Shown here one piece after another: positions 22,783 through 48,772 of a stretch of DNA of 64,000 nucleotides (position 1 is the first letter of the stretch; every line of letters starts with the position of its first letter). Below the pieces are notes generated by a model. That model had not been told where the DNA came from, searched no databases, and saw only the letters and a program-made list of their open reading frames with translations. The position numbers were made by a program, and so were the translations under genes. The DNA is from an uncultured virus (IMG/VR IMGVR_UViG_3300046455_000579) (Duplodnaviria; Heunggongvirae; Uroviricota; Caudoviricetes). The stretch lies in the IMG/VR virus record IMGVR_UViG_3300046455_000579. One strand, given 5' to 3'.

Positions 22783-23679
22783 CTACAGGGCCTTGTAGGC
22801 GGGCCACCAGGTGACGGCCAGCGTGGACGTGAGCGTGTTGTCGGTGGCGTTCCACCGAATCTCGTTGAGGCCCGGGGTGAGGACGAACTGGTCGATGCGG
22901 GAGACGGCGGTGAGGGGGGCGCCGCCGCCGTTCTCGCGCAGCACGGTGCGCCAGCCGGGCCGGGTGTCGATCTGCACCCACTCCCCGGCGGCCAGCGTCG
23001 TCTGCACGGTCAGCGTCCGGCCGGAGCCGACGTGGGTGATGGAGGGGTTGGCGCACGGCCCGTTGACCCGCAGAACGGGTGCGGTGGCCTTGGTGCCGTC
23101 GACCTGGATGTAGCCGGGGCGGGCGATTGCGGATGCGGCTCCGGCGATCGTGAACGGGAACTGCAGGGGGAAGGTCATGCCGCCCTCGGTGAGGCTGCCG
23201 AGCGGCATGGACGTCGTCTCCGCCTGGTCGGCGTAGTAGAGGTGGTCCTGCGCCTGGAACTCGATGTCGAGCGGCGCGTAGCCGAAGATGACCTGTTCCA
23301 GGTTGGGTTCGAACTTTCGCAGGCGGCCGCGGACGACGCGGGTGGTACGGCCGGGGAACTTCAGCCGCAGGTCCATGGTCGTGCCGGCCTGCCCGCGGAC
23401 GGCGTCGGTGTCGGCGAGGTCCTGGAGGTCGGCGGCGATGTCGAGGACGCCGGGCACGTCCTCGACGACCTTGACGGCGGCGTCGATGCGGATGAGGCGG
23501 CCGGCGTAGTAGTCGGTGCCCAGCCAGGTGCCGTCCTCCCCGGGCGGGTCCACGTCGGCGGTGCGCAGCGGGGGCTGGCCGAGGCCTTCGACGGTTTTGA
23601 TGGGGATGCTGGTGCCGCGTCCGATGAGGACGCCGCCGAGTTCGTGCTGGAAGTCGCTCAGCTCGATGGGTGTGCTCAT
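22783..23679 (-). CDS. distal tail protein (Dit-like)
   Basis: Directly after the tape measure; GPCANPSI…LTPGLNEI motifs. Confidence 0.75.
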   Translation of the reverse strand: MSTPIELSDFQHELGGVLIGRGTSIPIKTVEGLGQPPLRTADVDPPGEDGTWLGTDYYAGRLIRIDAAVKVVEDVPGVLDIAADLQDLADTDAVRGQAGTTMDLRLKFPGRTTRVVRGRLRKFEPNLEQVIFGYAPLDIEFQAQDHLYYADQAETTSMPLGSLTEGGMTFPLQFPFTIAGAASAIARPGYIQVDGTKATAPVLRVNGPCANPSITHVGSGRTLTVQTTLAAGEWVQIDTRPGWRTVLRENGGGAPLTAVSRIDQFVLTPGLNEIRWNATDNTLTSTLAVTWWPAYKAL

Positions 23680-34070: not shown

Positions 34071-35132
34071 TCACCACACCGTCGCAGCGATGTGGATGTC
34101 GGGGGTGTACATGATGGGCATCGCCGCGGCGGAGCCCTTCGTCCACACCTCGACCGGGTCGTCCTCGTACCCGGAGGTGACGATGATGCCGGGGGCCTCC
34201 TCCTTGGTGATGGAGGGGTTGCCGCCGAAGGACAGCTTGATGCCCTCGGCGGTGAGGCCGTACTGGGTTTCGCCCATCTGGCGGGCGTCGGGCGGCAGCA
34301 GGAAGAACATGTTCTCCGGCAGGGGCCGCTTTGACGTGCCGTCGTCGAGGGGGATGGTGACGTCGTAGGCCTCGATGGGCGGCAGGTTGTACTGCGCGCG
34401 GACCACGTTGACGGCTTCCGGGGACAGGACGGCGGTCGGGGTGGCGCTGGGCGCTACGGACCGGTAGTACGCCGCCCGGTAGGAGTCGTTGGCCATGGCC
34501 AGCGACCTCGTCTTGTACGAGGTGAGCGCGCGGGTGGGGAGCGGTGCGCCGGTGGAGCGCAGGTACTCGATCCAGCGCATCTCGTCGCCGAGCATGTCGG
34601 CAGCCGGGTTGGTCCAGACGGTCCCGGCGGTCGGCATGTTGTTGGCCGGCACGTTGTGGTTGGCCTCGATGGTGAGGCCGTTCTCGCCGACCAGGGTGAA
34701 CTTGCCGTCGACCAGGAGGTCGCCAGCGGCCAGCTCGAGGCGGTGCTTGATGGACAGGACGTGGGCGGCGGTGTCGTCCCAGATGCTGTCCTTGAGGTCC
34801 TCGCCGTCCATGCCGCGGGAGACGGCCTCAAGGATGACCTGGAGTTCGTCGATCGTGTACTTCTGGCCGAGCGGCAGAAGCTGACCCTCGGTCTCGTACC
34901 GCTGGATCTCGCGGTCGGCGACCTTGACCTGGGCGTTCCACGCCCGGTACGACGCGGCGGCGACGCGCCGCTTGGTGCCGCGAGTCTTCCACTTCACCGA
35001 GTTGACTGTGCGCTCGGGGAAGACGGACTGCGTCAGCAGGTAGTCGGCCGGCGTCTGGATCTGCCGTACGAACGCGTTGATGACGGTGGGGTTGATGTCG
35101 CGGAGCAGGAGCTCCAGCATGTCGTCAGCCAT
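34071..35132 (-). CDS. major capsid protein (lambda E-like)
   Basis: 353 aa; RLELAAGDLLVDGK, GETQYGLTAE, DDPVEVWTKGSA. Confidence 0.85.
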   Translation of the reverse strand: MADDMLELLLRDINPTVINAFVRQIQTPADYLLTQSVFPERTVNSVKWKTRGTKRRVAAASYRAWNAQVKVADREIQRYETEGQLLPLGQKYTIDELQVILEAVSRGMDGEDLKDSIWDDTAAHVLSIKHRLELAAGDLLVDGKFTLVGENGLTIEANHNVPANNMPTAGTVWTNPAADMLGDEMRWIEYLRSTGAPLPTRALTSYKTRSLAMANDSYRAAYYRSVAPSATPTAVLSPEAVNVVRAQYNLPPIEAYDVTIPLDDGTSKRPLPENMFFLLPPDARQMGETQYGLTAEGIKLSFGGNPSITKEEAPGIIVTSGYEDDPVEVWTKGSAAAMPIMYTPDIHIAATVW

Positions 35133-35984: not shown

Positions 35985-36881
35985 TCAGGCTGCGTCCGGG
36001 GCGCGCAGGCCCCGGTCGATGGCCATCTGCCGGGCGGCTGCGTTGATGGCGTCCTTGTCGCCGACGGGCTGGCGGGGGGCGTTGCCTCCGGCCGGGCCGC
36101 CGGACGGGGCGGGGGGAAGCGTCAGGGGGGCGGCCGGGGCGCCGAACAGTTCGGGCCGGCGCTGCTTCAGCTTGTCGGCGGCCGCGGCAAGGGTGGCGGC
36201 GTCGGCGTCCGGGTTGTCGCGCAGGTCGCGGTCCAGCATGGCGAGCGCGTCCTGGAGGTTCGGGGCGGTGACGTTTCCCTGGTCGTCGGCGATGTCGAGG
36301 GCGCCGAGCCGGGTGAGGGCCTGCTCGCGGGCCAGCGCGCGCCGGTCCGCGGCGATCTGGGCGCGGTCCTGGTCCAGCTTGGTCCGGTCGTCCTGGAGGG
36401 TCTGGGCCTGGGTGGTGAGCTCCTCCTGGCGGCGCTGCTCCTCGGTGAGGCGTTCCTTGCGGGTGACCTCGGCGTCCTTGAGGAGTTGTCCGAACTTTTT
36501 GGGGTCGAAGTCGTCGGGGTCGAAGGGCAGTCCGGCGGATTCGGCGAGTTCACGCAGGGCGGCGCGGCGGCCCTTGGAGTTCTCCCGGGCCATGATCTTG
36601 GTGAAGGCGCTCTGGGTCATCGGGGCGCCGGTGCCGTGGTCGAGGAGGACGGCTTCGTCCACGCCCGCGGTCTGCGGCGCGGCAGGCTGTGGGGTGGGAG
36701 GCTGCTGGCCTGCGCGGGCGGCGACGTCGGCCGGGGAAGGCACGGCGGGAGCTGCCGGGGCGGGCGCTCCGCCCTGTCCGCCGTCGTTGTAGAACACGGC
36801 GGCCGCGAGGACACCCGTGTACGGGTGCGCCCAGGCGGTGCGCGGGGTGGGGCCGAGGTGGTGCTGCGCGGGGCGACGCAT
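35985..36881 (-). CDS. capsid scaffolding protein
   Basis: Coiled coil ending …KQRRPELFG; lies between portal and decoration genes. Confidence 0.7.
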   Translation of the reverse strand: MRRPAQHHLGPTPRTAWAHPYTGVLAAAVFYNDGGQGGAPAPAAPAVPSPADVAARAGQQPPTPQPAAPQTAGVDEAVLLDHGTGAPMTQSAFTKIMARENSKGRRAALRELAESAGLPFDPDDFDPKKFGQLLKDAEVTRKERLTEEQRRQEELTTQAQTLQDDRTKLDQDRAQIAADRRALAREQALTRLGALDIADDQGNVTAPNLQDALAMLDRDLRDNPDADAATLAAAADKLKQRRPELFGAPAAPLTLPPAPSGGPAGGNAPRQPVGDKDAINAAARQMAIDRGLRAPDAA

Positions 36882-36913
36882 CTGTCCAAGTCCTCCCAGA
36901 CTCGTACTGTTTC

Positions 36914-36964
36914 CAGGCCCCGCGCCTGAGATCAAGGACATCACAGATGTCACGAGGTGTTCCC
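36914..36964 (-). promoter_or_regulatory. late-promoter/hairpin element, copy upstream of the scaffold gene
   Basis: GGGAAC-N18-TGTCCT-N6-CAGGCGCGGGGCCTG. Confidence 0.65.
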
Positions 36965-38839
36965 CCCGCTCCCCTGCTGCCCCTGCGCGGCCGGGCCCTG
37001 GGCGGCAGCGGCTGCGGGGTCGTCGGACGGCAGGGCGGGCAGCTGGACCGCGGGCGCTTCGGGCTCGTCGGGGGCTTCGCGGCCGAGGAACTTCGCGGTC
37101 TCGTCCACGTTGCCGAGGGCGTCGGCGAGGTTGCGGGCGTCGTCGAAGGAGCGGGCGTCGATCCGCTTGATCTCTTCCTCGGCGTCGTCGATGGGCCAGC
37201 CGATGTCCTGCAGCATTCGGATCGCCGTCTCCAATGAGATCAGCTTGTCGGTGCGGGCGTTGCGAATGGACTCGAGGGCTGCCGTCTTGTCGGTGGGACG
37301 GAACGAGCCGCGCACGATCTTCGCCGGGAGGGGGGTGATGCCCGCCCAGTCGGGGTGCTGGCCGGCGAGGAACAACCGTTGGACGAACTTGGGGAGGAGC
37401 CGGTCGGCGTGGTCGCGGGCCAGGCGCATCCCGGCGATCAGGGAGTCCTCCGGGCCCAGCGCCAACTCGAGAGCGTACCCGGACGGCATCTTGGACGGGT
37501 CCAGGGTGCCAAGGGCGACGGGCGGGATACGGACGACGTTCGCTGCGCGTTCGCCGAGGTCGTGGACCTGGTTGCGGAGTTCGGCGAGGTTGCGGCTGGT
37601 GTCGACGGTGGTGATGCCGCCGCCCTCGCCGAGCGTGAACACCAGACCCGGCCCGGCCTCATAGTGCTGCTGCCCGGACACCGACTTCCCGGAGATGCCG
37701 ATCATCGGGGAGCCGGTGGTGGCCGAGGCGCGGCTGGAGTCGGTGTCGGAGCCGGACAGTTCGTCGAAGATCTGCAGGGCCTTGGCGAGGCTGGACTGCC
37801 CCCAGTGCTCCCCCGGCTCGGGCACGGTGTTGGGGACGTGGATGACCGGCAGGAAGTCCTGGTACAGGTCGAGGCGGTCGAGGATCTCGCCCTGCTCGTT
37901 GGTGGCGAAGGACGCCTTGCCCATGGGCAGGCTGTCGATGTCGACAGGGCCCTTGAGGTCGCCGAGGTCCCAGGTCGCGTCGGTGAGGTAGCAGGTCCTG
38001 AACGACGGCTTCTCGGACCAGGGGTACAGGCGGGTGATGGAGCCGTTGGCGTCGACCTGGTCGCCCTGGCCGAGGACCGGGGCGGACGGGGTGGTGTCGG
38101 TGGCTTCGGACATGACGGGGGCGCGCAGGGCCCGGCCGGTGCGGTCGACACCGTTCGCGGTGCGAGGGCCGATCCAGTCGAGGTGGTAGGTAATGCGGCG
38201 CAGCCGGGCCGGCAGCTTGCGGGCCTTGTCCTCCGGGAGTTCCCACGCGAAATGCACTTTGTCGGGGTAGTCGGAGCCGTCGTCGTCTTCCCCCACGACC
38301 GGGAAGTAGAAGCCGGGGTCGAAGGTTTTCACGCGAACGCGCTGCTTGTCGCCGTCCCAGTACAGGAGGTAGACGCCGTCGCCGAGGCCTACGGCCTTGC
38401 GTTCGGTCTGGAGCATCCGCATCGGCAGGAGTTCCTCGTCGGCCCACTCCCGCAGCAGCGTCTGGACGCGTTCTGCGGCCGCCGACTCCGGGGTCTGCTG
38501 GTCGCCTTCGGCGCCGGGCACGGTGATGATCTGCTCACTGCCCAGGACGTCCGAGGTCAGCTTGTCGACGAACATCGACGGGTCACCGAACTCGCGCCGG
38601 TCGCGGGCCGTATCCCCGTCGACGAAGGCCGACAGTTCGGCGACCTGGTTGTGGTCGTAGGCCTTCAGCAGCTTGTAGGAGGCCAGGCGGCGCTCGTCGG
38701 CGGCGGGGACCCAGGTCGCGGCGGCTTCCGGAAAGGCGCGGCGGTGGGGCATGCCGAGGCTGTCGGAGAAGATCGGCTTGTAGTTCAGCCACGACCAGCC
38801 GTCGATGACGGCCTCTCTCAAGCCGGTGAAGAGGCCCAC
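36950..38839 (-). CDS. portal protein
   Basis: 629 aa after the terminase; GLGDGVY, LPVIHVPN…HWGQS, SGYALEL. Confidence 0.85.
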   Translation of the reverse strand: MGLFTGLREAVIDGWSWLNYKPIFSDSLGMPHRRAFPEAAATWVPAADERRLASYKLLKAYDHNQVAELSAFVDGDTARDRREFGDPSMFVDKLTSDVLGSEQIITVPGAEGDQQTPESAAAERVQTLLREWADEELLPMRMLQTERKAVGLGDGVYLLYWDGDKQRVRVKTFDPGFYFPVVGEDDDGSDYPDKVHFAWELPEDKARKLPARLRRITYHLDWIGPRTANGVDRTGRALRAPVMSEATDTTPSAPVLGQGDQVDANGSITRLYPWSEKPSFRTCYLTDATWDLGDLKGPVDIDSLPMGKASFATNEQGEILDRLDLYQDFLPVIHVPNTVPEPGEHWGQSSLAKALQIFDELSGSDTDSSRASATTGSPMIGISGKSVSGQQHYEAGPGLVFTLGEGGGITTVDTSRNLAELRNQVHDLGERAANVVRIPPVALGTLDPSKMPSGYALELALGPEDSLIAGMRLARDHADRLLPKFVQRLFLAGQHPDWAGITPLPAKIVRGSFRPTDKTAALESIRNARTDKLISLETAIRMLQDIGWPIDDAEEEIKRIDARSFDDARNLADALGNVDETAKFLGREAPDEPEAPAVQLPALPSDDPAAAAAQGPAAQGQQGSGGNTS

Positions 38840-38857: not shown

Positions 38858-38907
38858 CAGGCCCCGCGCCTGTGATCAGCGTACGGGCTGGGCATGGTCG
38901 GGTTCCC
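38858..38907 (-). promoter_or_regulatory. late-promoter/hairpin element, copy upstream of the portal gene
   Basis: GGGAAC-N18-TACGCT-N5-CAGGCGCGGGGCCTG. Confidence 0.65.
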
Positions 38908-39262
38908 CCGGCTGTTCGGGCAGCGGGACCGTGCGGCGGCCGCCGTCGTAGTCGACGGCGTGCCCGGCGGCGACGAGGTCCGCGTTGAGGGTGCGGGCGC
39001 CCGCGGTGATGGTGCCGAGGATCCGCCCGTACTTCTCGGTCTTGTCGAGTTCGGTGCGCAGGATCAGGTCGGGCCCGTTCTCGGCGAGCCACTGGGTGGT
39101 GAACGCGGTGGCGGCGTCTCCGGCCGGGCTGCCGTGTTCGGGGCAGTTCACGCCGAGGAGTCGGACGCGTTCGTGGATCTGGATGTGAAATCCCAGGTCG
39201 GCGAGGACGTCCAGGGTGTCGCCATCGACGACTCTGGACAGCCGCGCAGCGTAGACATACAT
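38876..39262 (-). CDS. thermonuclease (SNase-like)
   Basis: RVVDGDT, VRLLGVNCPE, EKYGRILG, LVAAGHA. Confidence 0.9.
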   Translation of the reverse strand: MYVYAARLSRVVDGDTLDVLADLGFHIQIHERVRLLGVNCPEHGSPAGDAATAFTTQWLAENGPDLILRTELDKTEKYGRILGTITAGARTLNADLVAAGHAVDYDGGRRTVPLPEQPGEPDHAQPVR

Positions 39263-39271
39263 CGGGTTCTC

Positions 39272-40894
39272 CTATCGGCGGCCGCGGAGGCGTTGGTCGC
39301 GGTAGTTGGAGGTGCCGAGGCCCTGGGTGGAGGGGTCGGCGAGTTCGGTGAGGGCGTGGACGGCGGCGTCCATGCGGTCGGGTGAGTCCATGCCGGGGAT
39401 CCAGGTGACCATCTGGCCCTCGAGGCGGGGGAATTCGCCGAGGTGGTGGACGAGGCCTTGGGCGTAGAGCTGGGCGATGGGTTCGGCGCGTAGCCGTTTG
39501 CCTTGCTTGGCGTGGACTTCGATGATCGATGGCATGAGGAGGCCGCGGGTTTCGCCTCGTTCGGCAAGCTCTTTCCAGGCCTGGCGGATGATCTGCTTGG
39601 CCATGTCGCCGCCGAAGTTGGCTTCGACGACGATGGCGTCGGCCTGGTACTCGATGGCGAGTTGGCAGGCGGCGAGGCCCCAGGTGTCGGCGCCCATGCG
39701 GTCGGATGCGTCGGCGAGGAGGTAGAGGTGGCCTTCGCGGTCGCGTCCTGCTGCGCACAGGCCGGCTTCGTCGTTTCCGTCTCCTTCTCCGCCGGCGTGG
39801 TCGACGGCGACGATGCTGCGGGTGAGGTCGATGCCGCGGAACGCCATGGGGGTGATGCGGTGGTCGGTGATCCATGGCCATTTCCACACGCCGCCCTCGA
39901 GTGGGCGGGGTTTTTGCATGTAGAGGGACCACCAGACGCGTTCCCCGACGGCGCGGCGGATCTTCTGGAGGGCTTTGGTGCCGTAGCGGATGGGCCACAG
40001 GGGGCGGCCGATGTCGCGGCCGAGGGCGTCGTTTTCGCTGTCGGCGATGGCGGGGAGGTCGAGGATGGTCCAGTCGTCGGCGTCTTCTCCGGCGAGGATG
40101 CGGCCGGCGAGGTCCTGTTCGTGCCAGCGGGTCTGGATGACCAGGATGGATCCGCCGGGTTCGATGCGGGTGTTGAGGACGGATGTCCACCAGTCCCACA
40201 GGCGGCGCCGCATGGTGGGGGATTCGGCGTCGGCGGCGTCTTTGATGGGGTCGTCGACGACGGCGAGGTGGGCGCCCTTGCCGGTGAGGCCGCCGCCGAC
40301 GCCTGCGGTGACGAGGCCGCCTTCGAGGCGTTCGCCGGTGTCGGGGTCGGCGAGGTCGAACCGGTTCGCCGCTTTGCTGCCGGAGTGGAGGGCGAGGCCG
40401 ATCTGGGGGCCGTAGGAGACGATCGCGTCGCGGATCCACCGTCCGTGGTCGTCGGCGAGGTCCGCGGAGTATGAGGCGATCATGACGCGGTGGTCGGGGT
40501 GCCTCGACAGGTACCAGAGCGGCGCCCACCGGGCCGCACGCCGGCTTTTGCCGTGCCGCGGAGGCATGGTGATGAGGACCTTGCGGGGCCGGCCGCGGGC
40601 GATGTCGCGGAACACCTGGTCGATCAGGTCCAGGTGGCGGGCCTGCTTCTCCTTCCCGTCGGTGAGGATCGCCGACATGGCGCCCGGCGACCGCTTGAGG
40701 GCCATGTCGCGTTCGACCCCGGCGAGGACGGTGCGGACCTCTCCACTGGCCCGGCAGGCGATATGGCGGCGCTGAGCCCGGTTCAGGCGCCGGTACTGGG
40801 CGACCAGTTGGAGTAGCTCCTCCGCTCCCTGGACGACGTCATCAACGTCCTCGTCGTGCCCCGGGCCGACGTCAGGTGTCGTCGCTGTGGTCAT
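39272..40894 (-). CDS. terminase large subunit
   Basis: Walker A MPPRHGKS, Walker B VVDD, QTRWH, nuclease motifs VAVD…EANFGG…PDRMDA. Confidence 0.92.
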   Translation of the reverse strand: MTTATTPDVGPGHDEDVDDVVQGAEELLQLVAQYRRLNRAQRRHIACRASGEVRTVLAGVERDMALKRSPGAMSAILTDGKEKQARHLDLIDQVFRDIARGRPRKVLITMPPRHGKSRRAARWAPLWYLSRHPDHRVMIASYSADLADDHGRWIRDAIVSYGPQIGLALHSGSKAANRFDLADPDTGERLEGGLVTAGVGGGLTGKGAHLAVVDDPIKDAADAESPTMRRRLWDWWTSVLNTRIEPGGSILVIQTRWHEQDLAGRILAGEDADDWTILDLPAIADSENDALGRDIGRPLWPIRYGTKALQKIRRAVGERVWWSLYMQKPRPLEGGVWKWPWITDHRITPMAFRGIDLTRSIVAVDHAGGEGDGNDEAGLCAAGRDREGHLYLLADASDRMGADTWGLAACQLAIEYQADAIVVEANFGGDMAKQIIRQAWKELAERGETRGLLMPSIIEVHAKQGKRLRAEPIAQLYAQGLVHHLGEFPRLEGQMVTWIPGMDSPDRMDAAVHALTELADPSTQGLGTSNYRDQRLRGRR

Positions 40895-41375
40895 CCAGTG
40901 CGCCTTCGTCGCCCTCGTCGGGGGCTTCGTCGTCCTCGGGATCGGGGTCGCCTGCTGCTCCGATCAGGCTGCGGAGTTCGGCGATGCTGGCCTGGCTGAT
41001 GGGGACGGCTCCCCCGCCGGGCCCGGACACCTCGGCGCGGATGGGTTCGGCCACCCCGTACAGGCGGATCCGTTCGGCGATGAGCCGGCGGGCCGCCTCG
41101 ACGGCCTTGAGGTCGCCCTTGAGCGCTTTGGGCCACACGGCGGCCAGGAGGCGTTCGAAGCGGGCTCCTTCGACCTCGCGCAGGTTCTCGACTGCTTCCT
41201 TCTCTTCCAGCCGGTTGCGCTGGATGGCGCGCCAGAAGTCTTTGCGGGCAGCGCCGTCGTCGGCGTAGTCGAGGCGGTCGGCGATGGCTTCGAAGTCCAT
41301 GCCGGCGAGCTTCAGTGCGATGAGCTGCTTGCGTCGCTGCGCGGTGACGGCCTGCTGGGCTTTGGATGCGGGCAT
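40872..41375 (-). CDS. terminase small subunit
   Basis: N-terminal HTH, EVSGPGGG motif, directly upstream of the large subunit. Confidence 0.75.
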   Translation of the reverse strand: MPASKAQQAVTAQRRKQLIALKLAGMDFEAIADRLDYADDGAARKDFWRAIQRNRLEEKEAVENLREVEGARFERLLAAVWPKALKGDLKAVEAARRLIAERIRLYGVAEPIRAEVSGPGGGAVPISQASIAELRSLIGAAGDPDPEDDEAPDEGDEGALDDHSDDT

Positions 41376-41464
41376 CAGTCGTCACCGTCCTGGGCGGTGG
41401 TGAGGTCGTGTTCCTCGCCGGCTGCCTGCTGGTGGGTGTGGCTGCTGTGTGCGCTGGTGGTCAT
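41375..41464 (-). CDS. 29-aa leader ORF coupled to the small terminase
   Basis: MTTSAHSSHTHQQAAGEEHDLTTAQDGDD; GGGAG RBS; TGATG overlap. Confidence 0.45.
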   Translation of the reverse strand: MTTSAHSSHTHQQAAGEEHDLTTAQDGDD

Positions 41465-41498
41465 GGCGGTGGGGGCTCCCGCTCGTATGTCTGACTGT

Positions 41499-41549
41499 CA
41501 GGCCCCGCGCCTGCTCCTGATGATCCCTGGTTTCCTCCGTTTCCTTCCC
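41499..41549 (-). promoter_or_regulatory. late-promoter/hairpin element, copy upstream of the terminase operon
   Basis: GGGAAG-N18-GATCAT-N6-CAGGCGCGGGGCCTG. Confidence 0.65.
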
Positions 41550-41620: not shown

Positions 41621-41676
41621 TTAGGTTGTCCATCTCATGTTGACGGCCCATCGGGGCTCCGTTAGATTGTCCATAT
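41621..41676 (+). promoter_or_regulatory. sigma70-type promoter with two TAGRTTGTCCAT boxes
   Basis: TTGACG(41640)-N17-TAGATT(41663); boxes at 41622 and 41663. Confidence 0.7.
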
Positions 41677-41705
41677 CAACACGACAACCTACGGAGGGAG
41701 CACCG

Positions 41706-42110
41706 ATGCAGAACCTGCGGAGCCTGACGGACAACCAGCTCGCCGAGGTGTACAGCGACGGCGACGAGGCCACCCAGGCCGCGGTGCTCCGCGAGGCCGC
41801 CCGCAGGGACCGCAAGGACGCACAGACCGCCCGCGACAAGGCCCGCTGGGCGGCCGTGAACGACCAGTGGATGAGCTGGGCCGAAGCGCAGTTCGCCGCC
41901 GCCGAGGCCGAGTGCCGCGGATACCTGCTCAACAAGGCCGGCCAGGCCGAGGGCATGACCCCGTGGACGCTGTGGACCGGCCCCGCAGCCCGCGCGACGC
42001 GGTACGCCTCCGAGGAGCTGCTGGAGTTCTGGGACACCCACCCGCGCCTGACCGTCAGCGAGTACCGCAACGAGCTGCGCCGCGCGAACCACGACCAGCC
42101 GGCCGCCTGA
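41706..42110 (+). CDS. hypothetical protein
   Basis: GGAGGGAG RBS; Trp-rich (YASEELLEFW). Confidence 0.7.
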   Translation: MQNLRSLTDNQLAEVYSDGDEATQAAVLREAARRDRKDAQTARDKARWAAVNDQWMSWAEAQFAAAEAECRGYLLNKAGQAEGMTPWTLWTGPAARATRYASEELLEFWDTHPRLTVSEYRNELRRANHDQPAA

Positions 42111-42143
42111 ACCGCCCATCCCACCCGCCGAAAGGACACGACC

Positions 42144-42479
42144 ATGACCGACTCCTCCTCCACCACCCGCTTCCAGGCCCGCAAGGCGCGCTCCGGCTGG
42201 TACGTCCAGGACTCCGTCACGGGCGACGTGTGGACGGGACTGTCCCGGCCCGGTGTGGACAACCTGATCGGCCACCTCGCCAAGGACAGGGCGTCCGCCC
42301 CGGTGGTCACGGCGGTCGCGGACGAGCCCGCCACCGCGGACGAGCCCGGCCAGCAGCCGCTGTGGGTGGAGATGATGGGCGCGGACTTCGGCGAGAGCCG
42401 TGGGCCGGTGCAGGGTTCGCTGTTCCAGGCTCCGGATGCGTGCGGAACGCTGGACCTGTTCGCCGCCATGGGCGAGTAG
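42144..42479 (+). CDS. hypothetical protein
   Basis: AAAGGA RBS; within the operon. Confidence 0.6.
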   Translation: MTDSSSTTRFQARKARSGWYVQDSVTGDVWTGLSRPGVDNLIGHLAKDRASAPVVTAVADEPATADEPGQQPLWVEMMGADFGESRGPVQGSLFQAPDACGTLDLFAAMGE

Positions 42480-42516
42480 CTTGTCTCTATCAGAACGACT
42501 ATCTATGGAGGTTGTG

Positions 42517-42876
42517 ATGGGTGCTGAGCCCGCAGGGCTGCCGGACGCCGACGAGCTGATCGCCGTGGCGCAGGGGGCGCTGGCCGGCGGCACGGCCGAC
42601 GACGCGCGCCGCGCGCTGGACGCTTACGCCCCGGCCGTCGACACGCTGGTCGATGCGGCCGCGGCCGCGGCGTGGCTGGGCATCTCGCCATCCTCCATCT
42701 ACCGCGAGCGCTCGCGCGAGCGCGCGGACGGGACGCCCGGCTGGCCCGACCCGGACAGGAAGTTCGGCCGGTCGGGGGTCTGGAGCTACCGGACGCTGGT
42801 GCTGCACCGGGCGACGATGCCGGGCCGGGGTTCGGCCGGCCGGGGTCGTCCGCGTCGGGCCGGCCAGTCGGGTTGA
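42517..42876 (+). CDS. AlpA/MerR-like HTH DNA-binding protein with an AT-hook-like tail
   Basis: LVDAAAAAAWLGISPSSIY…WPDPD..FGRSGVW; GRGRPR. Confidence 0.7.
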   Translation: MGAEPAGLPDADELIAVAQGALAGGTADDARRALDAYAPAVDTLVDAAAAAAWLGISPSSIYRERSRERADGTPGWPDPDRKFGRSGVWSYRTLVLHRATMPGRGSAGRGRPRRAGQSG

Positions 42877-42908
42877 CGGGGTTCTCACCCGGAAGATAGG
42901 TTGTCCAT

Positions 42909-43349
42909 ATGGACGAGACAAGCTTTCAGGATGCCCTGTTCGCCACGGACACCGAGCCCACGCCGTACGTGCTCACCGTGAAGCAGCCCTGGGCGTGGGC
43001 CATCATCCACGCGGGCAAGGACGTCGAAAACCGCAGCAGGCCTGTCAACTACCGGGGCAAGCTGCTCATCCAGGCTGGCAAGAGCTACGCCCCCGAGGGT
43101 GACAAGTACCTGCGCGATCTGGGCATCACTCCCCCGGCCGACCTGCCGCGCGGCTGCATCATCGGCTCTGTCGAGGTCGTCGGCTCCACCAGCCGGTCCA
43201 CCTCCGAGTGGGCCATGGACGGATACCAGCACTGGCTGCTCGCCGACCCGAAGCCTGCTGCGCAGCTCCTGCCGTGCCGGGGATCGCTGAGCATGTTCCG
43301 CGCCCCCGAGGGTTGGGAGCAGGCGTTCACGTCGCCTTCGGGGGCATGA
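42909..43349 (+). CDS. ASCH-domain protein
   Basis: LTVKQPWAWAIIHAGKDVENRS…YRGKLLIQAG…PRGCIIG; probable leaderless promoter TTGACG(42873)-N18-TAGGTT(42897). Confidence 0.85.
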   Translation: MDETSFQDALFATDTEPTPYVLTVKQPWAWAIIHAGKDVENRSRPVNYRGKLLIQAGKSYAPEGDKYLRDLGITPPADLPRGCIIGSVEVVGSTSRSTSEWAMDGYQHWLLADPKPAAQLLPCRGSLSMFRAPEGWEQAFTSPSGA

Positions 43350-44418
43350 ACTCGAAACTGCGCGTGAGAAGGCGTCGGGGGTCGGAGTAGCGCTTCCTCA
43401 GCGAGCCCGTGAGGCTCTTGCCGGGCTTTCCTGTACTCACCTTCCCGGTCTCGCGCCAGCGTGGGGAGCGCACGCAGTAGGCGATGACTGCCGGATGGGC
43501 GACAACTCGCCTGTAACGGCAGCCTTGCTGGTACAAGTGCTGGCCGATCCATTCGGAGATACGGCCGCTGATCCCCAGCCCCTGGTAGTCGGGCAGGACG
43601 ACGGACCGGTGGTCCATCTTGATGTTCTTCGCCTGGGCGTGCGGGAAGTGCATGTAGGCGCTGAAGGCTACGAGGTCGTCACCGATGAAGCCGCCGAAGC
43701 AGCGTGCGGAGCGGTTCAGGTCGGCGCTCAGATAGTGATGGCGGCGAAACAGCGGCCAGACGGTGTGATCGACCTGGTGGATGCGGAGTTCGAGCGCGGG
43801 GTGGGGTTGAACCTGCCTCCACGCGAAGGAGTTGGCCGCGACGTCGAACACCCAGTCGGGCTGGAGCCAGTCGGTGACGTCGTAGTGGCAGGTGACGGCG
43901 ACGAACTGGCGGTCCTGGCGGCGCACTGCCTTTTGCACCGTGTGGGAGGCGACCTTGGCGACCTGACGGTCGACGACCGAGGTGAACTCGTCGACGACGA
44001 CCAGGCCGTCGGTCTCGGCGAGGGAGCGGGCGATGGAGGCACGGAACGCCTCGCCGTTGGACAGCGTGTGGTGCGGGCGCATCCACGCGGGCGGTGAGCC
44101 GAGGCCGACCGAGGTGAGCAGACCGATGATGTCCTTGATGCTCATGCTGGCCGGGAAGTCGTCGAGCAGCGACGCGTCCGGGGACCATACATAGTTCGCG
44201 GCCATCTCCTCGGGCCACACGTGCCGGGCCAGGGTGGACTTGCCTGCTCCGGAGGGTCCGACGATGAGACCGACGTTCCAGGGCCGGTCCTCGATGGGCA
44301 GGTTCGCGTCGAGGGTGTGGCCGGCTTTCTGCTCGATCGGGACGTCGAACATGCCGGCCATCTGCAGGACGCGGGCGGAGCTGCAGACGGTGGTGCTGAC
44401 GTTGACTTGTGCGCGCAT
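43327..44418 (-). CDS. ABC-ATPase / GNAT (Mom-like) acetyltransferase fusion
   Basis: GPSGAGKST, LSNGE, VVVDEF, VTCH; then HHYLS and RSVVLPDYQGLGIS. Confidence 0.85.
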   Translation of the reverse strand: MRAQVNVSTTVCSSARVLQMAGMFDVPIEQKAGHTLDANLPIEDRPWNVGLIVGPSGAGKSTLARHVWPEEMAANYVWSPDASLLDDFPASMSIKDIIGLLTSVGLGSPPAWMRPHHTLSNGEAFRASIARSLAETDGLVVVDEFTSVVDRQVAKVASHTVQKAVRRQDRQFVAVTCHYDVTDWLQPDWVFDVAANSFAWRQVQPHPALELRIHQVDHTVWPLFRRHHYLSADLNRSARCFGGFIGDDLVAFSAYMHFPHAQAKNIKMDHRSVVLPDYQGLGISGRISEWIGQHLYQQGCRYRRVVAHPAVIAYCVRSPRWRETGKVSTGKPGKSLTGSLRKRYSDPRRLLTRSFEFMPPKAT

Positions 44419-44433
44419 GCCGGGGTGTCCCTT

Positions 44434-45009
44434 CTATGCCATGAGGGCGCGGACGCGGCGCCCTTCGGCGGCCAGCCGCTCGAGGAGTTCGGTCTGCTGC
44501 TGCTCGTCCAGGCATTCGACGATGACGCCCCACGTTGCTTCGGTGTCCTCGATGGGGGCGTCGCCCTCTTCGGGGAGCTGCGGGGGGACGATCAGTGCGG
44601 CGACGTCTTCGTCGGTGTATCCGGTGCCTTCGTAGTCGCCGTCGAGGTAGGAGATGAGTTCGGCGAGGGCGTCTTTGTCGTTCTCTCCGAGCTCGGCGGT
44701 GCGGTTGTCGGCGAGGTTGATCCGGCGGGCGGTGTTGTCGTCGCAGACGACGACTTCGCAGCGGGCTGTCTCGTGCCCTTCGGCGGCGAGCCCCTGCATG
44801 GTGTGGTTGCCGGCCAGGACAATGAGGGGGCCGTCAGGGATTTCCCGGACGACGAGCGACCTGTACTGGCCGTTGCGGCGGAGGGATTTGCGGATGGCGT
44901 CGACGTCGCCGCGTTTCGCGTTGCCGGGGAACGGGGTGAGTTCATCCAGGGGGATGTCGGCGGTGCGGACGTAGGTGACGCCGGCGTCGGAGTCGGTGCT
45001 TTCGGTCAT
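44434..45009 (-). CDS. ParB/Srx-like domain protein
   Basis: LTPFPGNAK…IRKSLRRNGQYRSLVV…LAGNH…LADNRTAEL; no HTH. Confidence 0.85.
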   Translation of the reverse strand: MTESTDSDAGVTYVRTADIPLDELTPFPGNAKRGDVDAIRKSLRRNGQYRSLVVREIPDGPLIVLAGNHTMQGLAAEGHETARCEVVVCDDNTARRINLADNRTAELGENDKDALAELISYLDGDYEGTGYTDEDVAALIVPPQLPEEGDAPIEDTEATWGVIVECLDEQQQTELLERLAAEGRRVRALMA

Positions 45010-45037
45010 GGCGGTGGGGCTCCCGCTGTGTGGTTGT

Positions 45038-45088
45038 CAGGCCCCGCGCCTGTCACAGATGATCGCCGATTTCCGTGGTTCTGTTCCC
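45038..45088 (-). promoter_or_regulatory. late-promoter/hairpin element, copy upstream of the ParB-like gene
   Basis: GGGAAC-N18-GATCAT-N6-CAGGCGCGGGGCCTG. Confidence 0.65.
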
Positions 45089-45120
45089 TGCGCCCTGGTT
45101 GGGGCGTCACGATGCCCGGC

Positions 45121-45819
45121 ATGAGAGATGTGCGTGTGAGGGGGGCTGTGGCGGCGTGTGTGGCTGCTGCGGTGGTGGTGTTGGCGGGTTGCGGGGGCGG
45201 ATCGGACGACGGCGGGAAGTCGAAGGCGTCGCCGTCGGTGTCGGCGGTGGGTTCGTCGCCGCCTGCTGAGGTGGAGCCGTCGCCGACGTATCCGCCGGGC
45301 CCGGAGGGGGATGTGGACCGGGCCGTGGATGAGGCGGGTCTGGTGTATGACGATTCGTCGTACACCGATGCGGCCGCGTTCGTGCAGGACATCTGCGACT
45401 CGATGGTGACGCAGTCGAAGAACTGGAACCCGGCGCAGTGGCTGGCGGAGGGTGGCTATCTCGGGGATGACGGGGAGCAGATCCTGGATGTGGGGGTGCC
45501 GAAGCTGTGCCCGCGGTGGAAGTCGGCGTTGAAGCAGGCGGAGGCGGGGACGTACGTGCGGTTCATCTCGTCTGGGGAGTTCGAGGTGAAGGCGGATCCG
45601 GCGCCGTATGACTCTGACAGCGATTCGGATGTTGAGGAGATCAAGGCGGGCACGTATGTGGCGCGGGGGCATTTCTCGGACTGCTACTGGGAGCGGACCG
45701 GGGCGGACGGTCAGATTATTGAGAATCGTGCGGTGACTCAGGCGACGCGGATGACGGTGACGTTGCGGGTTGGGGAGCTGTTCTCGAATGACTGCGGGAC
45801 GTTTCGGCCGGTCGGCTGA
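45121..45819 (+). CDS. lipoprotein
   Basis: Signal peptide with LAGC lipobox; GTY…CYWER…CGTF C-terminal domain; start at 45112 or 45121. Confidence 0.75.
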   Translation: MRDVRVRGAVAACVAAAVVVLAGCGGGSDDGGKSKASPSVSAVGSSPPAEVEPSPTYPPGPEGDVDRAVDEAGLVYDDSSYTDAAAFVQDICDSMVTQSKNWNPAQWLAEGGYLGDDGEQILDVGVPKLCPRWKSALKQAEAGTYVRFISSGEFEVKADPAPYDSDSDSDVEEIKAGTYVARGHFSDCYWERTGADGQIIENRAVTQATRMTVTLRVGELFSNDCGTFRPVG

Positions 45820-46043: not shown

Positions 46044-48332
46044 CTACTCCCCTGCGTCCGGGCCGGGTCCCGGGCCGTACTTGCCGCGGACGGCCTGGCC
46101 GCTGCCGGGCATGCGGTGGATGCGGCCTTCCTTGACCATCCGGGACAGCCGGTTCTCGAGCGTGGAGGAAGTCAGCCCGGTGAGGCGCTCGATGTCGTCC
46201 TTGTGCAGGTAGTTGACCTCCTCCCCCATCGGGTCGGCGGCGTCCTCGAGGACGGTGAGGATCTTTTCGTCTGCGTTGGGCCCCTTCGGCGGTCCGGTGA
46301 GGGTGGCCCCGCCGCCGGCCTGTCCCGTCTCGCCGTCTTCGTCGTCCGGGAGGATGGAGGTCCGGCCGATCTCGTCCGCGCGCTCGAAGTCCGGCCAGTC
46401 AGCGGGGTGGGCGATGGCGGTTTCGTCGATGTAGGGGGCGGCGGACTCGAGGATGAAGTCGCGCATCATCTCGGCGGCTCCGCCGGGGCCCAGGGTGTAG
46501 CCGAGCCCGTAGGTGGATTCGGGGTCCTGGAGGGCGACGCTCTCGTCGTAGATGAGGGGCCGGTTGACGTCCCAGGCCGGGGGGATCTGGCCGGGGTCGA
46601 CGCCTTCGAAGCCGGTGGTGACGAGGTTGGACTGGTCGGAGTCGGTGCGGAGCATGACCAGGGAGCCGCCCTGGATGACGTTGGTCCGCAGGGCGGTTGA
46701 GCCGCCGAGCTTGTCGGCGTTCACGGCCTGGTTGACGATGGTGAGGATGATGCCGAGGGAGCGGGCCTTCGCGGCCAGCGCCTCCACGATGATCTTTGCT
46801 TCCTTGCGGTGGTCGACCAGCTCGGACAGCGGGACGTGGGCTTCGTCGAGGATGACGCGGACCCAGGGGCGGTCAGGGGTGGCGATGAAGTTCTTCATCT
46901 TCAGCCGTGCGGACTCGGCGATCCGCCACTGCATGAGGCCGTAGGAGACGCGCAGGGCGTGCATGCACTGTTCTTCGCCGATGCCGGAGTAGCAGGCCAT
47001 GGTCTCGACGTCGGGGTTGGAGGAGCCCTTGGGGTCGGCGTAGATGATGGCGTGGCCGTTGACGTGGTCGGCGAGGGCGACGATCTGGATGAGGCCACCC
47101 TTGCCGGATCCGGTGACGCCGGCGATGAAGAGGTGCTTGGCGCCGAGCTTGGGGTCGACGAACTGGATGCGGGCGGGGAATCCGGAGACGTGCTGGCCGA
47201 TCTGGACGTAGCCGCCCTTGGAGATTTTCAGGACGTGGGTGCCGGGGAAGGGGACGCCCTCCTTGAGGGGGTTGTGATTCATCTTGCGGACGGTTCCGCG
47301 GCGGGGGTCTCCGGGGACGGGTGCGTAGGAGCAGAGCAGGGTGTTGGTGCGGAGCGCTCCGGCGAGGGCTGCGCGGTCGGGGACGGGGAGTTTGTCGAGG
47401 TTCTCGCCAGCGACGACGTAGGCGACTTCACCGCCGGTGTTGGGGTCGGTCTGGACGTCTTCGAGGTGGGTGCCGGCCATGACGCCGCCGGTGCGGGCGG
47501 CCCATTTGCGCCAGGCGCCCTGGAGGGTGCTGGTGTCGAGTTCGGCGGGCGGCGCAAGGTTGACGGTGATGTGGCGTTCGCCGGAGTGGGCGCCGTCCTC
47601 GAAGGTGATCCAGGCGGCGCGGACCTGGTAGGGGGTGGACTGGTAGGCGCTGGAGACGGTGTCGGCGGTGACGGTGACGGACTGGCCGGCGGGGGCGGTG
47701 ATGGTGCCTTTCCAGCGGGTCGTGGACAGGGTGCGGATCTCGATGTTCTGGCTTTTGTGGGTGCCGTTGTCGAGGTTGGAGATGATCTGGTGCCAGCGGT
47801 AGGCGATCTGTTCGGCGGGGGTCAGCGGTCCGGCGGCTGCCTTGGGTGCGGGGCCGACGGGGGTGGGGGCGGGCTGTTTGGGGGTGCGGACGCGGCCGAG
47901 GACCTTGCGGAGTTTGAGGGGGACGAAGCCGACGGCGGCCAGCCAGCCGAGGGAGACGATGCCGGGGATCGGGTTGGCGGCGATGTCGGCGACGCCGAGC
48001 ATGAGGGCGTCGGATCCTTCGCCGCCGAGGAGGGCGCCCATGGCGAGAGCGACGCCGCTGGTGAGGGTGGAGATGGCCATGGGGGTGCTGTGCGCGCGGA
48101 GGATGTCCGCGGGCAGGTGGCGTTCGAGGCCGGGCGGTAGCCGGTTCATGTAGGTGGCGGTGGTGAGGGCGGCCGCGCCGCCGTAGGCGATGGTGGCGAG
48201 GAAGGTGGCGCTGGCGTCGAGGAGGGGGATGCCCGCGCCGATGGCGATGGGGGCGGCGCTGGTGGCGATGGCGATGCCGCGTTCGGTGCTGCTGGCGGCC
48301 GGCCTGCTGGCGGTGTTCGTGTTGCTCGTCAT
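46044..48332 (-). CDS. traB: TraB-like FtsK/SpoIIIE conjugative DNA translocase
   Basis: N-terminal TM helices, Walker A GVTGSGKG, Walker B ILDEAH, ARSLGI…NQ, C-terminal winged helix. Confidence 0.8.
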   Translation of the reverse strand: MTSNTNTASRPAASSTERGIAIATSAAPIAIGAGIPLLDASATFLATIAYGGAAALTTATYMNRLPPGLERHLPADILRAHSTPMAISTLTSGVALAMGALLGGEGSDALMLGVADIAANPIPGIVSLGWLAAVGFVPLKLRKVLGRVRTPKQPAPTPVGPAPKAAAGPLTPAEQIAYRWHQIISNLDNGTHKSQNIEIRTLSTTRWKGTITAPAGQSVTVTADTVSSAYQSTPYQVRAAWITFEDGAHSGERHITVNLAPPAELDTSTLQGAWRKWAARTGGVMAGTHLEDVQTDPNTGGEVAYVVAGENLDKLPVPDRAALAGALRTNTLLCSYAPVPGDPRRGTVRKMNHNPLKEGVPFPGTHVLKISKGGYVQIGQHVSGFPARIQFVDPKLGAKHLFIAGVTGSGKGGLIQIVALADHVNGHAIIYADPKGSSNPDVETMACYSGIGEEQCMHALRVSYGLMQWRIAESARLKMKNFIATPDRPWVRVILDEAHVPLSELVDHRKEAKIIVEALAAKARSLGIILTIVNQAVNADKLGGSTALRTNVIQGGSLVMLRTDSDQSNLVTTGFEGVDPGQIPPAWDVNRPLIYDESVALQDPESTYGLGYTLGPGGAAEMMRDFILESAAPYIDETAIAHPADWPDFERADEIGRTSILPDDEDGETGQAGGGATLTGPPKGPNADEKILTVLEDAADPMGEEVNYLHKDDIERLTGLTSSTLENRLSRMVKEGRIHRMPGSGQAVRGKYGPGPGPDAGE

Positions 48333-48382
48333 GGCGGATCTCCTTCGCGGGGCTGCGGGCGGGGTGGGGGGGGGTGGAGGTT

Positions 48383-48772
48383 CTACTCCTGGGTGAGCCA
48401 GTCGTTGTCGACGTCGTGGATGCCGGAGGCCGGGGAGGCGTTGACGGCTTCGTGGATGCCCTGGTGGGTGGCGACGGCTTCGTCGTGGCTGGTCCGGGCG
48501 AGGCGGGTGGTGGTGTCGCCGGCGGAGGCGTACCGGATGGCCTGCTCGGACACCCCGGTCATGGTCTTGGCGAGTTGGTGGGTCTCTCCGACGGTCTCGG
48601 TGTCGACGCGTTTGGCGGAGATCCCGTCGGCGATCCGGCTGGTGTCGGTGGCTTCCTGCTCGATGAACTGGGCCCATCCGCGGAGGGCTTCGGCGTCGGC
48701 GAGGATCTCGTTGCCGAAGTCGGTGACGTCTCGGACGAACTGCTCGTAGCGGGTGTCGGTCATGGGGCTCAC
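48383..48772 (-). CDS. helical transfer-associated protein
   Basis: Directly upstream of traB and coupled to the previous gene. Confidence 0.55.
   Translation of the reverse strand: MSPMTDTRYEQFVRDVTDFGNEILADAEALRGWAQFIEQEATDTSRIADGISAKRVDTETVGETHQLAKTMTGVSEQAIRYASAGDTTTRLARTSHDEAVATHQGIHEAVNASPASGIHDVDNDWLTQE

Follow-up and report, generated by a model that had tools for sequence, protein, structure and literature searches.

We examined a candidate system for the reversible acylation of phage DNA, encoded in a 64,000-nt stretch of DNA from an uncultured virus (IMG/VR record IMGVR_UViG_3300046455_000579; the whole stretch is hereafter the window). The system comprises a ParB-like protein, a fusion of an ABC-type ATPase with a GNAT domain (ABC-GNAT) and, on the opposite strand, an ASCH-domain protein. 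The association of ASCH with the ParB/ABC-GNAT pair (the module) is real, recurrent and facultative across phages. In the window these three genes, together with three small plus-strand genes, are judged from comparison with related phages to form a cassette of ~3.5 kb that was inserted with a duplication of the late leader. The reading of the whole cassette as a writer and an eraser of a mark on DNA is tentative, and we give it less than even weight.

The module loci were the best 80 of at least 583 viral-contig stretches encoding an ABC-GNAT relative, plus those of phages Jace, phiNIH1.1 and phiE255, which gave 83 loci. All open reading frames (ORFs) in these neighbourhoods were clustered and the recurrent clusters were annotated. 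The comparison set consisted of 79 viral loci with relatives of the window's large terminase subunit (TerL), at 31–100% identity. ParB, ABC-GNAT and ASCH were found together in 2/79 of these loci (L168 and L169), both 100% identical to the window, and the other 77/79 lack ABC-GNAT. A TRIP4-like ASCH profile identified a gene in 16/83 module loci. Three more ASCH genes, belonging to other subtypes, came from Pfam (L034, L081 and p26 of phiNIH1.1), for a total of 19/83. Among the 77 cassette-less loci, two have an ASCH gene of this family. The difference is ninefold (Fisher p 1e-4), with the p value only a guide because the control loci are mostly from one phage lineage. The initial annotation of this DNA had tied its proposal to the co-occurrence of ASCH across homologous loci; co-occurrence was found, and the proposal was not refuted on that count.

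The ASCH gene lies downstream of ABC-GNAT and convergent with it in 14/19 carriers, and 8 of those 14 genes overlap the GNAT 3′ end, by 4–97 nt. The ASCH-carrying module loci have different terminase families. A tree of 82 ABC-GNAT sequences was built with FastTree and scored for ASCH presence, with the four loci that have <1.5 kb of downstream sequence treated as unknown and ORFs <300 amino acids (aa) dropped. ASCH presence required 14–15 changes, at least 11 of them forced by well-supported branches. The association therefore does not come from one lineage, and an origin in a single phage lineage was rejected. The ASCH label was no more clustered on the tree than shuffled labels (98/500 shuffles scored as low). 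Seen from the ASCH side, ABC-GNAT lies within 6 kb in 12 of the best 80 viral ASCH loci, mostly adjacent and convergent. A ParB of this type was present in 26 of these 80 loci, with or without ABC-GNAT.

Two convergent genes deserve separate mention. Jace gp89 (L001 7214–7672, minus strand) is annotated as 'helix-turn-helix DNA binding protein' and matches the ASCH profile at E 7e-40; the annotation is probably a misannotation. The gene is convergent with an operon of ParB (gp85), ABC-GNAT (gp86), PanD (gp87) and CoA-transferase (gp88). In Pasteurella phage Pmp13 a convergent ORF of 93 aa (L165 4573–4854, minus strand) overlaps the ABC-GNAT 3′ end by 17 nt. It had no ASCH or other Pfam match, was left out of the ASCH count, and may be a different or very divergent partner.

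In the window, the ASCH gene (42909–43349, plus strand, 146 aa) faces the ABC-GNAT gene (43327–44418, minus strand, 363 aa). The two overlap stop to stop at 43327–43349, confirming the 23-nt convergent overlap that had been reported initially. The ParB-like gene (44434–45009, minus strand, 191 aa) ends 15 nt before the ABC-GNAT start. All three genes noted initially are real and intact: their G+C content at third codon positions (GC3) is 0.87–0.89, the coding signature of this genome. The unit had been drawn at 42909..45088, which proved too narrow, since ASCH is the last of four plus-strand genes that begin at 41706 (41706–43349).

The relatives of the window's phage preserve the arrangement without the cassette. 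In L191, with TerL 91% and the TraB-like translocase 82% identical to those of the window, the order is TraB-like gene, opposite-strand lipoprotein-like gene, leader, small terminase subunit gene (TerS) and TerL, and several further close relatives keep this order. The extra genes of the window all lie between the lipoprotein-like gene and TerS. The single leader of the cassette-less relatives aligns with both of the copies found in the window. The copy before ParB aligns base for base with the relatives' TerS leader, with the ancestral left flank kept. The cassette-less relatives and the leader alignment thus indicate that the writer pair and ASCH entered the phage together, and the alignment indicates in addition that the ParB/ABC-GNAT pair took over a late-operon leader. 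By this comparison the insertion is recent and the cassette mobile. The two identical loci, L168 and L169, are metagenome viral contigs with 100% protein identity to the window over the shared genes, from TraB-like to HNH, and so represent the same phage sampled elsewhere.

Three small genes precede ASCH on the plus strand. The first encodes an unknown protein of 134 aa (41706–42110) that matches phrog_12049 (E 7.6e-15) and is similar to the C-terminal region of large MuF/'head morphogenesis' proteins; an Atlas search with it returned no usable match. A 52%-identical homologue was found by tblastn upstream of ASCH in L084, the closest other ASCH locus, where ABC-GNAT is convergent and overlapping. 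The second gene encodes an unknown protein of 111 aa (42144–42479, GC3 0.94) that had no family match in Pfam, phrog or PADLOC scans. The third product (42517–42876) is a small protein with a weak helix-turn-helix match (Pfam HTH_28 and HTH_23, E ~1e-3, under cut-offs). It also matches the DNA-binding protein family phrog_597 (E 1.5e-6), and its gene was found elsewhere only in the identical contigs L168 and L169.

The leader copies upstream of ParB (45027–45088) and TerS (41488–41549), both on the minus strand, form a 62-nt direct repeat with 74% identity. Each carries the 15-mer CAGGCGCGGGGCCTG, a hairpin with a 5-bp stem and a 5-nt loop, at 45038–45052 and 41499–41513 respectively. The first copy also contains GGGAG as a ribosome-binding site and continues into the ParB ATG at 45009. 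Further exact copies of CAGGCGCGGGGCCTG lie upstream of the portal gene (38858–38872, minus strand) and the scaffold gene (36914–36928, minus strand). With four copies in 64 kb, all on the minus strand, against 0.05 expected, a chance origin was rejected, and the earlier claim that the hairpin ahead of ParB is common to the terminase, portal and scaffold genes holds. Judged from these repeats, the leader and hairpin used by the ParB/ABC-GNAT pair are those of the TerS, portal and scaffold genes, suggesting late co-regulation. The hairpin could act as a late promoter or as an activator site, or it could signal RNA processing or translation.

A short upstream ORF of about 30 codons (41376–41469, minus strand) starts at the leader ATG (~41469). 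Its stop overlaps the TerS start (TGATG), coupling the ORF to the TerS start. In relatives TerS itself starts at the leader ATG, and the leader duplication left the upstream ORF in the window.

A different element recurs on the plus strand. The element TAGNTTGTC..T.T occurs in four copies between 41622 and 42910, all on the plus strand, against 0.01 expected: a pair precedes the first plus-strand gene, and single copies precede the third gene and ASCH. Two of the copies can be read as a −10-like hexamer with TTGACG as the −35. The tandem pair occupies 41622–41690, and its second copy supplies the −10 of the promoter-like site TTGACG-17-TAGATT ahead of the gene at 41706, which the promoter scan located at 41640–41668. 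Before the ASCH ATG at 42909 lies the promoter-like sequence TTGACG-18-TAGGTT (42873–42902, plus strand; TTGACG 42873–42878, TAGGTT 42897–42902). The sigma70-type promoter that the initial annotation assigned to ASCH can thus be read in the sequence; it was absent from the list of the consensus scan, which passed over it because TAGGTT fits only 3/6 TATAAT positions. An operator-like inverted repeat, AGGTTGTC-N11-GACAAGCT, overlaps this site. The TAGNTTGTC..T.T element itself holds the inverted repeat AGGTTGTC-N11-GACAAsCT, over the −10 and the start point. The ASCH ATG is 7 nt past the −10, which fits a leaderless start; leaderless mRNA is common in actinobacteria. That ASCH has its own promoter is plausible.

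The fusion protein was assigned by motifs and fold. Residues 1–~205 form the ABC domain and residues ~209–360 the GNAT domain. Residues 4–358 match positions 2–349 of 357 of phrog_11143, a family without an assigned function, at E 1e-96. Pfam ABC_tran matched at E 1.3e-7. Acetyltransf_1 scored 17.3 bits on the window copy, under the 20.7 cut-off, and relatives pass it with up to 37.8 bits. The translation contains GPSGAGKS (Walker A), LSNGE (signature), VVVDEF (Walker B), CH (H-loop) and the motifs HHYLS and QGLG that had been noted initially. In an alignment of 53 members G57, G59, K60, L119, S120, G122, D143, H228, Y229, Q279 and G280 are invariant, E144, H178 and G282 nearly invariant, and R271 invariant or nearly so. 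The ABC profile matched nucleotide-binding domains in the PDB at E 2e-18, and these matches include ABCE1 and ABC-F proteins, which are associated with the ribosome.

An AlphaFold2 model built on the 53-member alignment has two domains (predicted local distance difference test score, pLDDT, 93.2; predicted template modelling score, pTM, 0.88). In a fold search with this model, the best ABC match gave Z 14.7 with a root mean square deviation (rmsd) of 3.1 Å over 176 aligned residues. The GNAT domain matched IAA acetyltransferase 1y9k (Z 14.4, rmsd 3.1 Å, 133 residues), RimI (Z 13.9) and Naa10/Naa50 (Z 13.3–13.5). The Z values of the GNAT matches (13–14.4) are tied and give no indication of the acceptor. 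The GNAT-domain profile gave weak matches to PDB sequences (best E 0.025, nearly all GNATs), and the domain was therefore settled by the fold search. The fusion is a member of the ABC ATPase superfamily by motifs and fold. On the model and the QGLG acyl-CoA loop, its C-terminal domain is assigned to the GNAT superfamily, with acyl transfer as the predicted activity. The Pfam scan of the fusion returned ABC_tran and generic AAA matches only, with no helicase or tRNA-binding family, and at E ≤0.01 no Mom-type family; no direct comparison with Mom was made. PADLOC gave generic ABC-type matches, plus one weak methyltransferase match to ParB.

The ParB-like protein has an N-terminal domain of the ParB/Srx nucleotide-binding type and a small conserved C-terminal domain. 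It matches phrog_723 at E 5e-44. Pfam ParB_N did not match the window copy and did match relatives. The family profile found Spo0J 1vz0 first in the PDB (E 1.9e-14), then Noc, ParB, a ParB-domain nuclease and sulfiredoxin. Canonical segregation ParB proteins have a helix-turn-helix that binds parS, a ParA partner and, in the nucleotide-binding domain, an arginine-rich CTP-binding motif (GERRxR). A canonical partition ParB was rejected as an identity for this protein, which is short and has a variant at the position of that motif; a ParA gene was not seen in the scanned ORFs of the window.

The ParB-like gene lies directly upstream of ABC-GNAT on the same strand in 79/83 module loci. In addition, 8 of the best 150 ABC-GNAT representatives are ParB-ABC-GNAT fusions, whose N-terminal extension matches the window ParB at E 1e-19 to 2e-4. 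These fusions argue for a physical partnership, and the gene arrangement supports ParB and ABC-GNAT as a functional pair. In phiE255 the ParB partner (gp28, L003 4840–5004) is only 54 aa long and matches only a C-terminal ParB-family piece, phrog_28816, which also matches residues 157–186 of a full-length ParB partner. The piece kept in phiE255 may be the part that contacts ABC-GNAT.

The module is widespread. An exhaustive profile-free search yielded 4029 representative proteins with E ≤0.001, of which 648 reached E ≤1e-30, and tblastn found the ABC-GNAT fusion in 75/50,697 phage records from many host genera. The large terminases downstream of the module fall into six sequence clusters (30, 10, 9, 6, 4 and 4 loci) that include the Pfam types Terminase_6N/6C, GpA and TerL_ATPase/nuclease, and several small-terminase families and portals are also nearby. 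The initial placement of the ParB-type pair next to terminases is borne out by this diversity. Some modules have additions: PanD and CoA-transferase III (4 loci for each of the two ORF clusters, 5 loci on the per-locus map, Jace included), a family-I CoA-transferase in L015, a glycosyl-transferase in L068 and a formyl-transferase in the Mu-like phage phiE255. The gene is away from the terminase in phiE255 and in the T4-like Aeromonas phage PX29. In phiE255 it follows the tail-fibre genes, which we take to be the same place at which Mu carries mom.

Gene structure varies in a few members. One ABC-GNAT representative (P0203, 715 aa) contains an intein with Hint and LAGLIDADG domains, and the neighbouring helicase is also intein-bearing in L023, L024, L027 and L080. 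In Streptococcus and Oenococcus phages the ABC-GNAT match is in two pieces (phiNIH1.1, L002 4962–5989), which may reflect a split gene or an insertion. In phiNIH1.1 and its relatives only the ATPase half is annotated ('ABC transporter'), and an ASCH gene follows it on the same strand.

The ASCH protein of the window was not matched by Pfam; among its relatives, some bear PF04266 or are named 'ASCH domain'. Its profile matched the human TRIP4 ASCH domain at E 3e-20. An AlphaFold2 model (pLDDT 92.1) was submitted to Foldseek, which placed the TRIP4 ASCH domain first (E 2e-9; template modelling score, TM, 0.69), in structures both with and without bound double-stranded DNA, followed by EOLA1, TTHA0113 and ZmASCH. 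The modelled protein has the PUA-like β-barrel fold. Its conserved octapeptide is G36-K37-D-V-E40-N-R42, in which K37, E40 and R42 are invariant in 39/39 aligned sequences. This is the GKER subtype, TRIP4-like. The initial annotation had argued from YqfB, which is of another subtype (GKTR); membership of that type was rejected, with position 40 being Glu and not Thr and the protein 146 aa long against about 103 aa. The YqfB chain was also absent from the 12 PDB profile matches of ASCH (E ≤1). The proposed eraser activity stands on a different footing. According to a preprint (bioRxiv 10.64898/2026.02.27.708502), all 19 ASCH proteins assayed in vitro strip N4-acetylcytidine from tRNA, the GKER-type TthASCH, EOLA1 and TRIP4 ASCH are in the assayed set, and the Lys and Glu of the motif are essential.

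From these elements a reversible acylation of DNA in tailed phages can be proposed. Late in infection the ParB-like protein would load or activate ABC-GNAT on double-stranded phage DNA, a role modelled on the ParB-dependent phage thymine dioxygenases compared below. The ABC domain would dimerise on ATP and make the base accessible, as TmcA does with its helicase domain, and the GNAT domain would move an acyl group from acyl-CoA to the exocyclic amine of the base. The packaged DNA would thereby carry a protective mark. ASCH would be a GKER-type amidohydrolase of the kind that removes acetyl from N4-acetylcytosine, and its presence makes N4-acyl-cytosine the most likely mark. It would remove the mark when the late operon is silent, most likely early after entry or in the lysogen, and convergent transcription would keep writer and eraser from being produced jointly. 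In its specific form (a ParB-loaded GNAT writes N4-acyl-cytosine before packaging, ASCH erases it after entry or in the lysogen, and the convergent overlap makes the two mutually exclusive) we regard this proposal as possible and rather doubtful. That form includes an acyl group that would be acetyl, or beta-alanyl where PanD and CoA-transferase have been added.

Several observations weigh against the proposal. No ASCH gene is nearby in 64/83 module loci, and 68 of the best 80 ASCH loci lack ABC-GNAT. An eraser missing from most module loci must be dispensable, and the pre-terminase region may just gather accessory genes. At the position of the canonical CTP-binding motif the window ParB is of the AGNHT subtype (23/75 members), and the majority are AGHxR (50/75). 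A dedicated DNA-binding domain was named by none of the family searches and fold matches of the fusion, and its closest solved GNAT folds are the small-molecule and protein N-terminal acetyl-transferases listed above. The ASCH activities demonstrated to date, going by the preprint (bioRxiv 10.64898/2026.02.27.708502), are all on nucleosides or tRNA and not on DNA. For every family member, the putative acceptor is assigned from gene context alone. Of the writer/eraser reading given initially, the pair, the late leader, the terminase context and the ASCH co-occurrence stand, and the absence of ASCH from most module loci counts against it.

In a first alternative, ParB/ABC-GNAT modifies phage DNA and ASCH is an unrelated accessory that tends to settle in the variable region from the early genes to the terminase, with no writer/eraser relation between them. 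The 64/83 module loci and 68/80 ASCH loci in which one gene lacks the other fit this view, as do the 26/80 ASCH loci that have a ParB of this type with or without ABC-GNAT, the shuffled-label result on the tree and Leptospira phage LE3, where ASCH and ABC-GNAT are about 13 kb apart on the circular record. It is opposed by the ninefold rate of ASCH over the controls and by a convergent position that recurs beside different terminase families, with overlap in 8 loci; in the window, moreover, ASCH came in the same insertion as the pair. We consider this alternative unlikely.

The place of the module, immediately upstream of TerS or TerL in most loci, suggests a second alternative: ParB binds DNA near pac/cos, and GNAT acetylates the terminase, portal, capsid or a host factor, with ASCH unrelated. 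RimI, Naa10 and Naa50 are among the closest GNAT folds, and the ABC domain, a compact one of the transporter type, has no coiled coils like those of SMC or Rad50; both features would suit a packaging accessory or a protein target. The Z values, however, do not separate protein-directed from other GNATs, and phiE255 and PX29 carry the gene away from the terminase. The donor-making PanD and CoA-transferase, or the formyl-transferase, beside some modules also speak against it, being typical of base hypermodification, and the ASCH enrichment is left unexplained. Phage GNATs that acetylate host proteins do exist, such as Rac, as described in PMC7824862. A protein-directed module is likewise improbable in our judgement.

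The least probable alternative, which we rate as quite improbable, is an RNA target. Here the fusion would be functionally analogous to TmcA/NAT10 and would form N4-acetylcytidine, or another acyl-cytidine, in tRNA or rRNA at a late stage of infection, with ASCH as the tRNA eraser. In its favour, TmcA/NAT10, to our knowledge the sole known ATP-dependent GNAT on a nucleobase, acts on tRNA and rRNA, the polymer substrates demonstrated for ASCH in the preprint are all tRNAs, and the ABC matches include ABCE1 and ABC-F. Against it, the obligate partner has a ParB fold with known roles on DNA, the gene context is packaging and DNA modification and not translation, Pfam found no TmcA tRNA-binding or helicase domain, and the window has no tRNA genes.

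The carrier is a temperate, siphovirus-type phage of a high-GC actinobacterium, present in the window (G+C ~70%) as a prophage that extends from the integrase gene (8797–9945) to ~57 kb. The late genes are on the minus strand. They include the genes for TerL (39272–40894; Pfam Terminase_6N and Terminase_6C, phrog_38 E 8e-102), an HNH endonuclease (38876–39262), portal (36950–38839), scaffold (35985–36953), major head protein (34071–35132) and tape measure (23676–28769). The TerS-like gene (40872–41375, minus strand) encodes the probable small terminase subunit and matches phrog_645 at E 5e-26. The label of that family, 'Rnase E', is most likely a mislabel for small terminase subunit; the family lies between ABC-GNAT and TerL in 13/83 module loci (e.g. 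L006 7499–7984). On the other side of the cassette, the lipoprotein-like gene lies at about 45100–45819, on the strand opposite the TraB-like gene in relative L191. Beyond it, just upstream of the packaging genes, is the gene for an FtsK/TraB-like DNA translocase of 877 aa (46044–48677, minus strand). It matches NCBIfam plasmid_TraB at E 3.8e-7, far under the model cut-off, and phrog_1358 at E 5.7e-5. The translocase is kept in relatives of the same phage lineage at 43–82% identity and is unusual for a tailed phage.

If the writer/eraser proposal is true, phage DNA would have an N-acyl base modification, probably at cytosine N4, that has never been chemically shown in any virus, together with its remover. 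No enzymatic pair would previously have been known to write and erase an acyl mark on DNA, and restriction and anti-restriction would have a new layer to contend over. ASCH domains, which include those of human TRIP4 and EOLA1, would acquire a role at the DNA level, and the enzymes could become tools with which acyl marks are placed on DNA and taken off again. The module is widely found, with at least 583 viral contigs and 648 representative clusters (E ≤1e-30). The question is directly testable because cultured carriers with harmless hosts exist, among them Rhodococcus/Gordonia phage Jace, Arthrobacter phage EastWest and Leptospira biflexa phage LE3. The window itself offers a clean natural experiment, in which the whole set entered as one block and 77 related loci are without it.

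Among known systems, the proposal has the same logic as TmcA/NAT10 with the ASCH erasers YqfB, TthASCH, EOLA1 and TRIP4 ASCH: an NTPase-GNAT writes an N-acyl mark and ASCH removes it. The window ATPase differs in being an ABC domain and not a RecD-type helicase, and no tRNA-binding domain was found in it; the partner is ParB, the context is DNA packaging, and ASCH is GKER and not the GKTR of YqfB. Membership of the TmcA/NAT10 family was rejected on the different type of ATPase (ABC fold), and the resemblance is one of logic only. The Mom protein of Mu is likewise a phage GNAT-fold protein, acting at adenine N6, and is thought to acylate a DNA base for anti-restriction. The link to Mom drawn in the initial annotation holds at the level of the GNAT superfamily only; as far as we know, Mom lacks an ATPase domain and is partnered by neither ParB nor ASCH.

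A parallel for the ParB-like protein comes from the 5mYOX enzymes, Fe/2-oxoglutarate dioxygenases that modify bases after replication. Experiments by O'Toole et al. (PNAS 2026, PMC13229309) showed that a DNA thymine dioxygenase is activated by a short ParB homologue from phage, which is needed specifically on double-stranded DNA; its nucleotide-binding and C-terminal domains are both required, and it has no obvious DNA-binding domain. Both systems thus have a short ParB-like gene adjoining a phage enzyme, which in the window is a predicted ATPase-acyl-transferase in place of a dioxygenase.

Acylation of a DNA base by ABC-GNAT, the heart of the proposal, is already in print as a prediction. It was made for a phage 'GNAT coupled with an ABC ATPase' by Iyer, Zhang, Burroughs and Aravind (NAR 2013), as cited in Iyer et al. 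(Viruses 2021, PMC7824862), and ParB and ASCH are unmentioned in the passages concerned of PMC7824862. In the literature searched, which did not include Iyer 2013, we found no experiment on the predicted base acylation by the module and no paper linking ASCH to it, and PMC12839542, searched for GNAT and ASCH, contains no description of the module. We did not find the ASCH-coupled variant in print. The window protein is the same whole-length fusion as that of the published prediction, by its phrog_11143 match, with the same predicted activity, and to this the window copy adds the convergent, overlapping ASCH gene, the three small genes and the recent insertion of all of them as a cassette.

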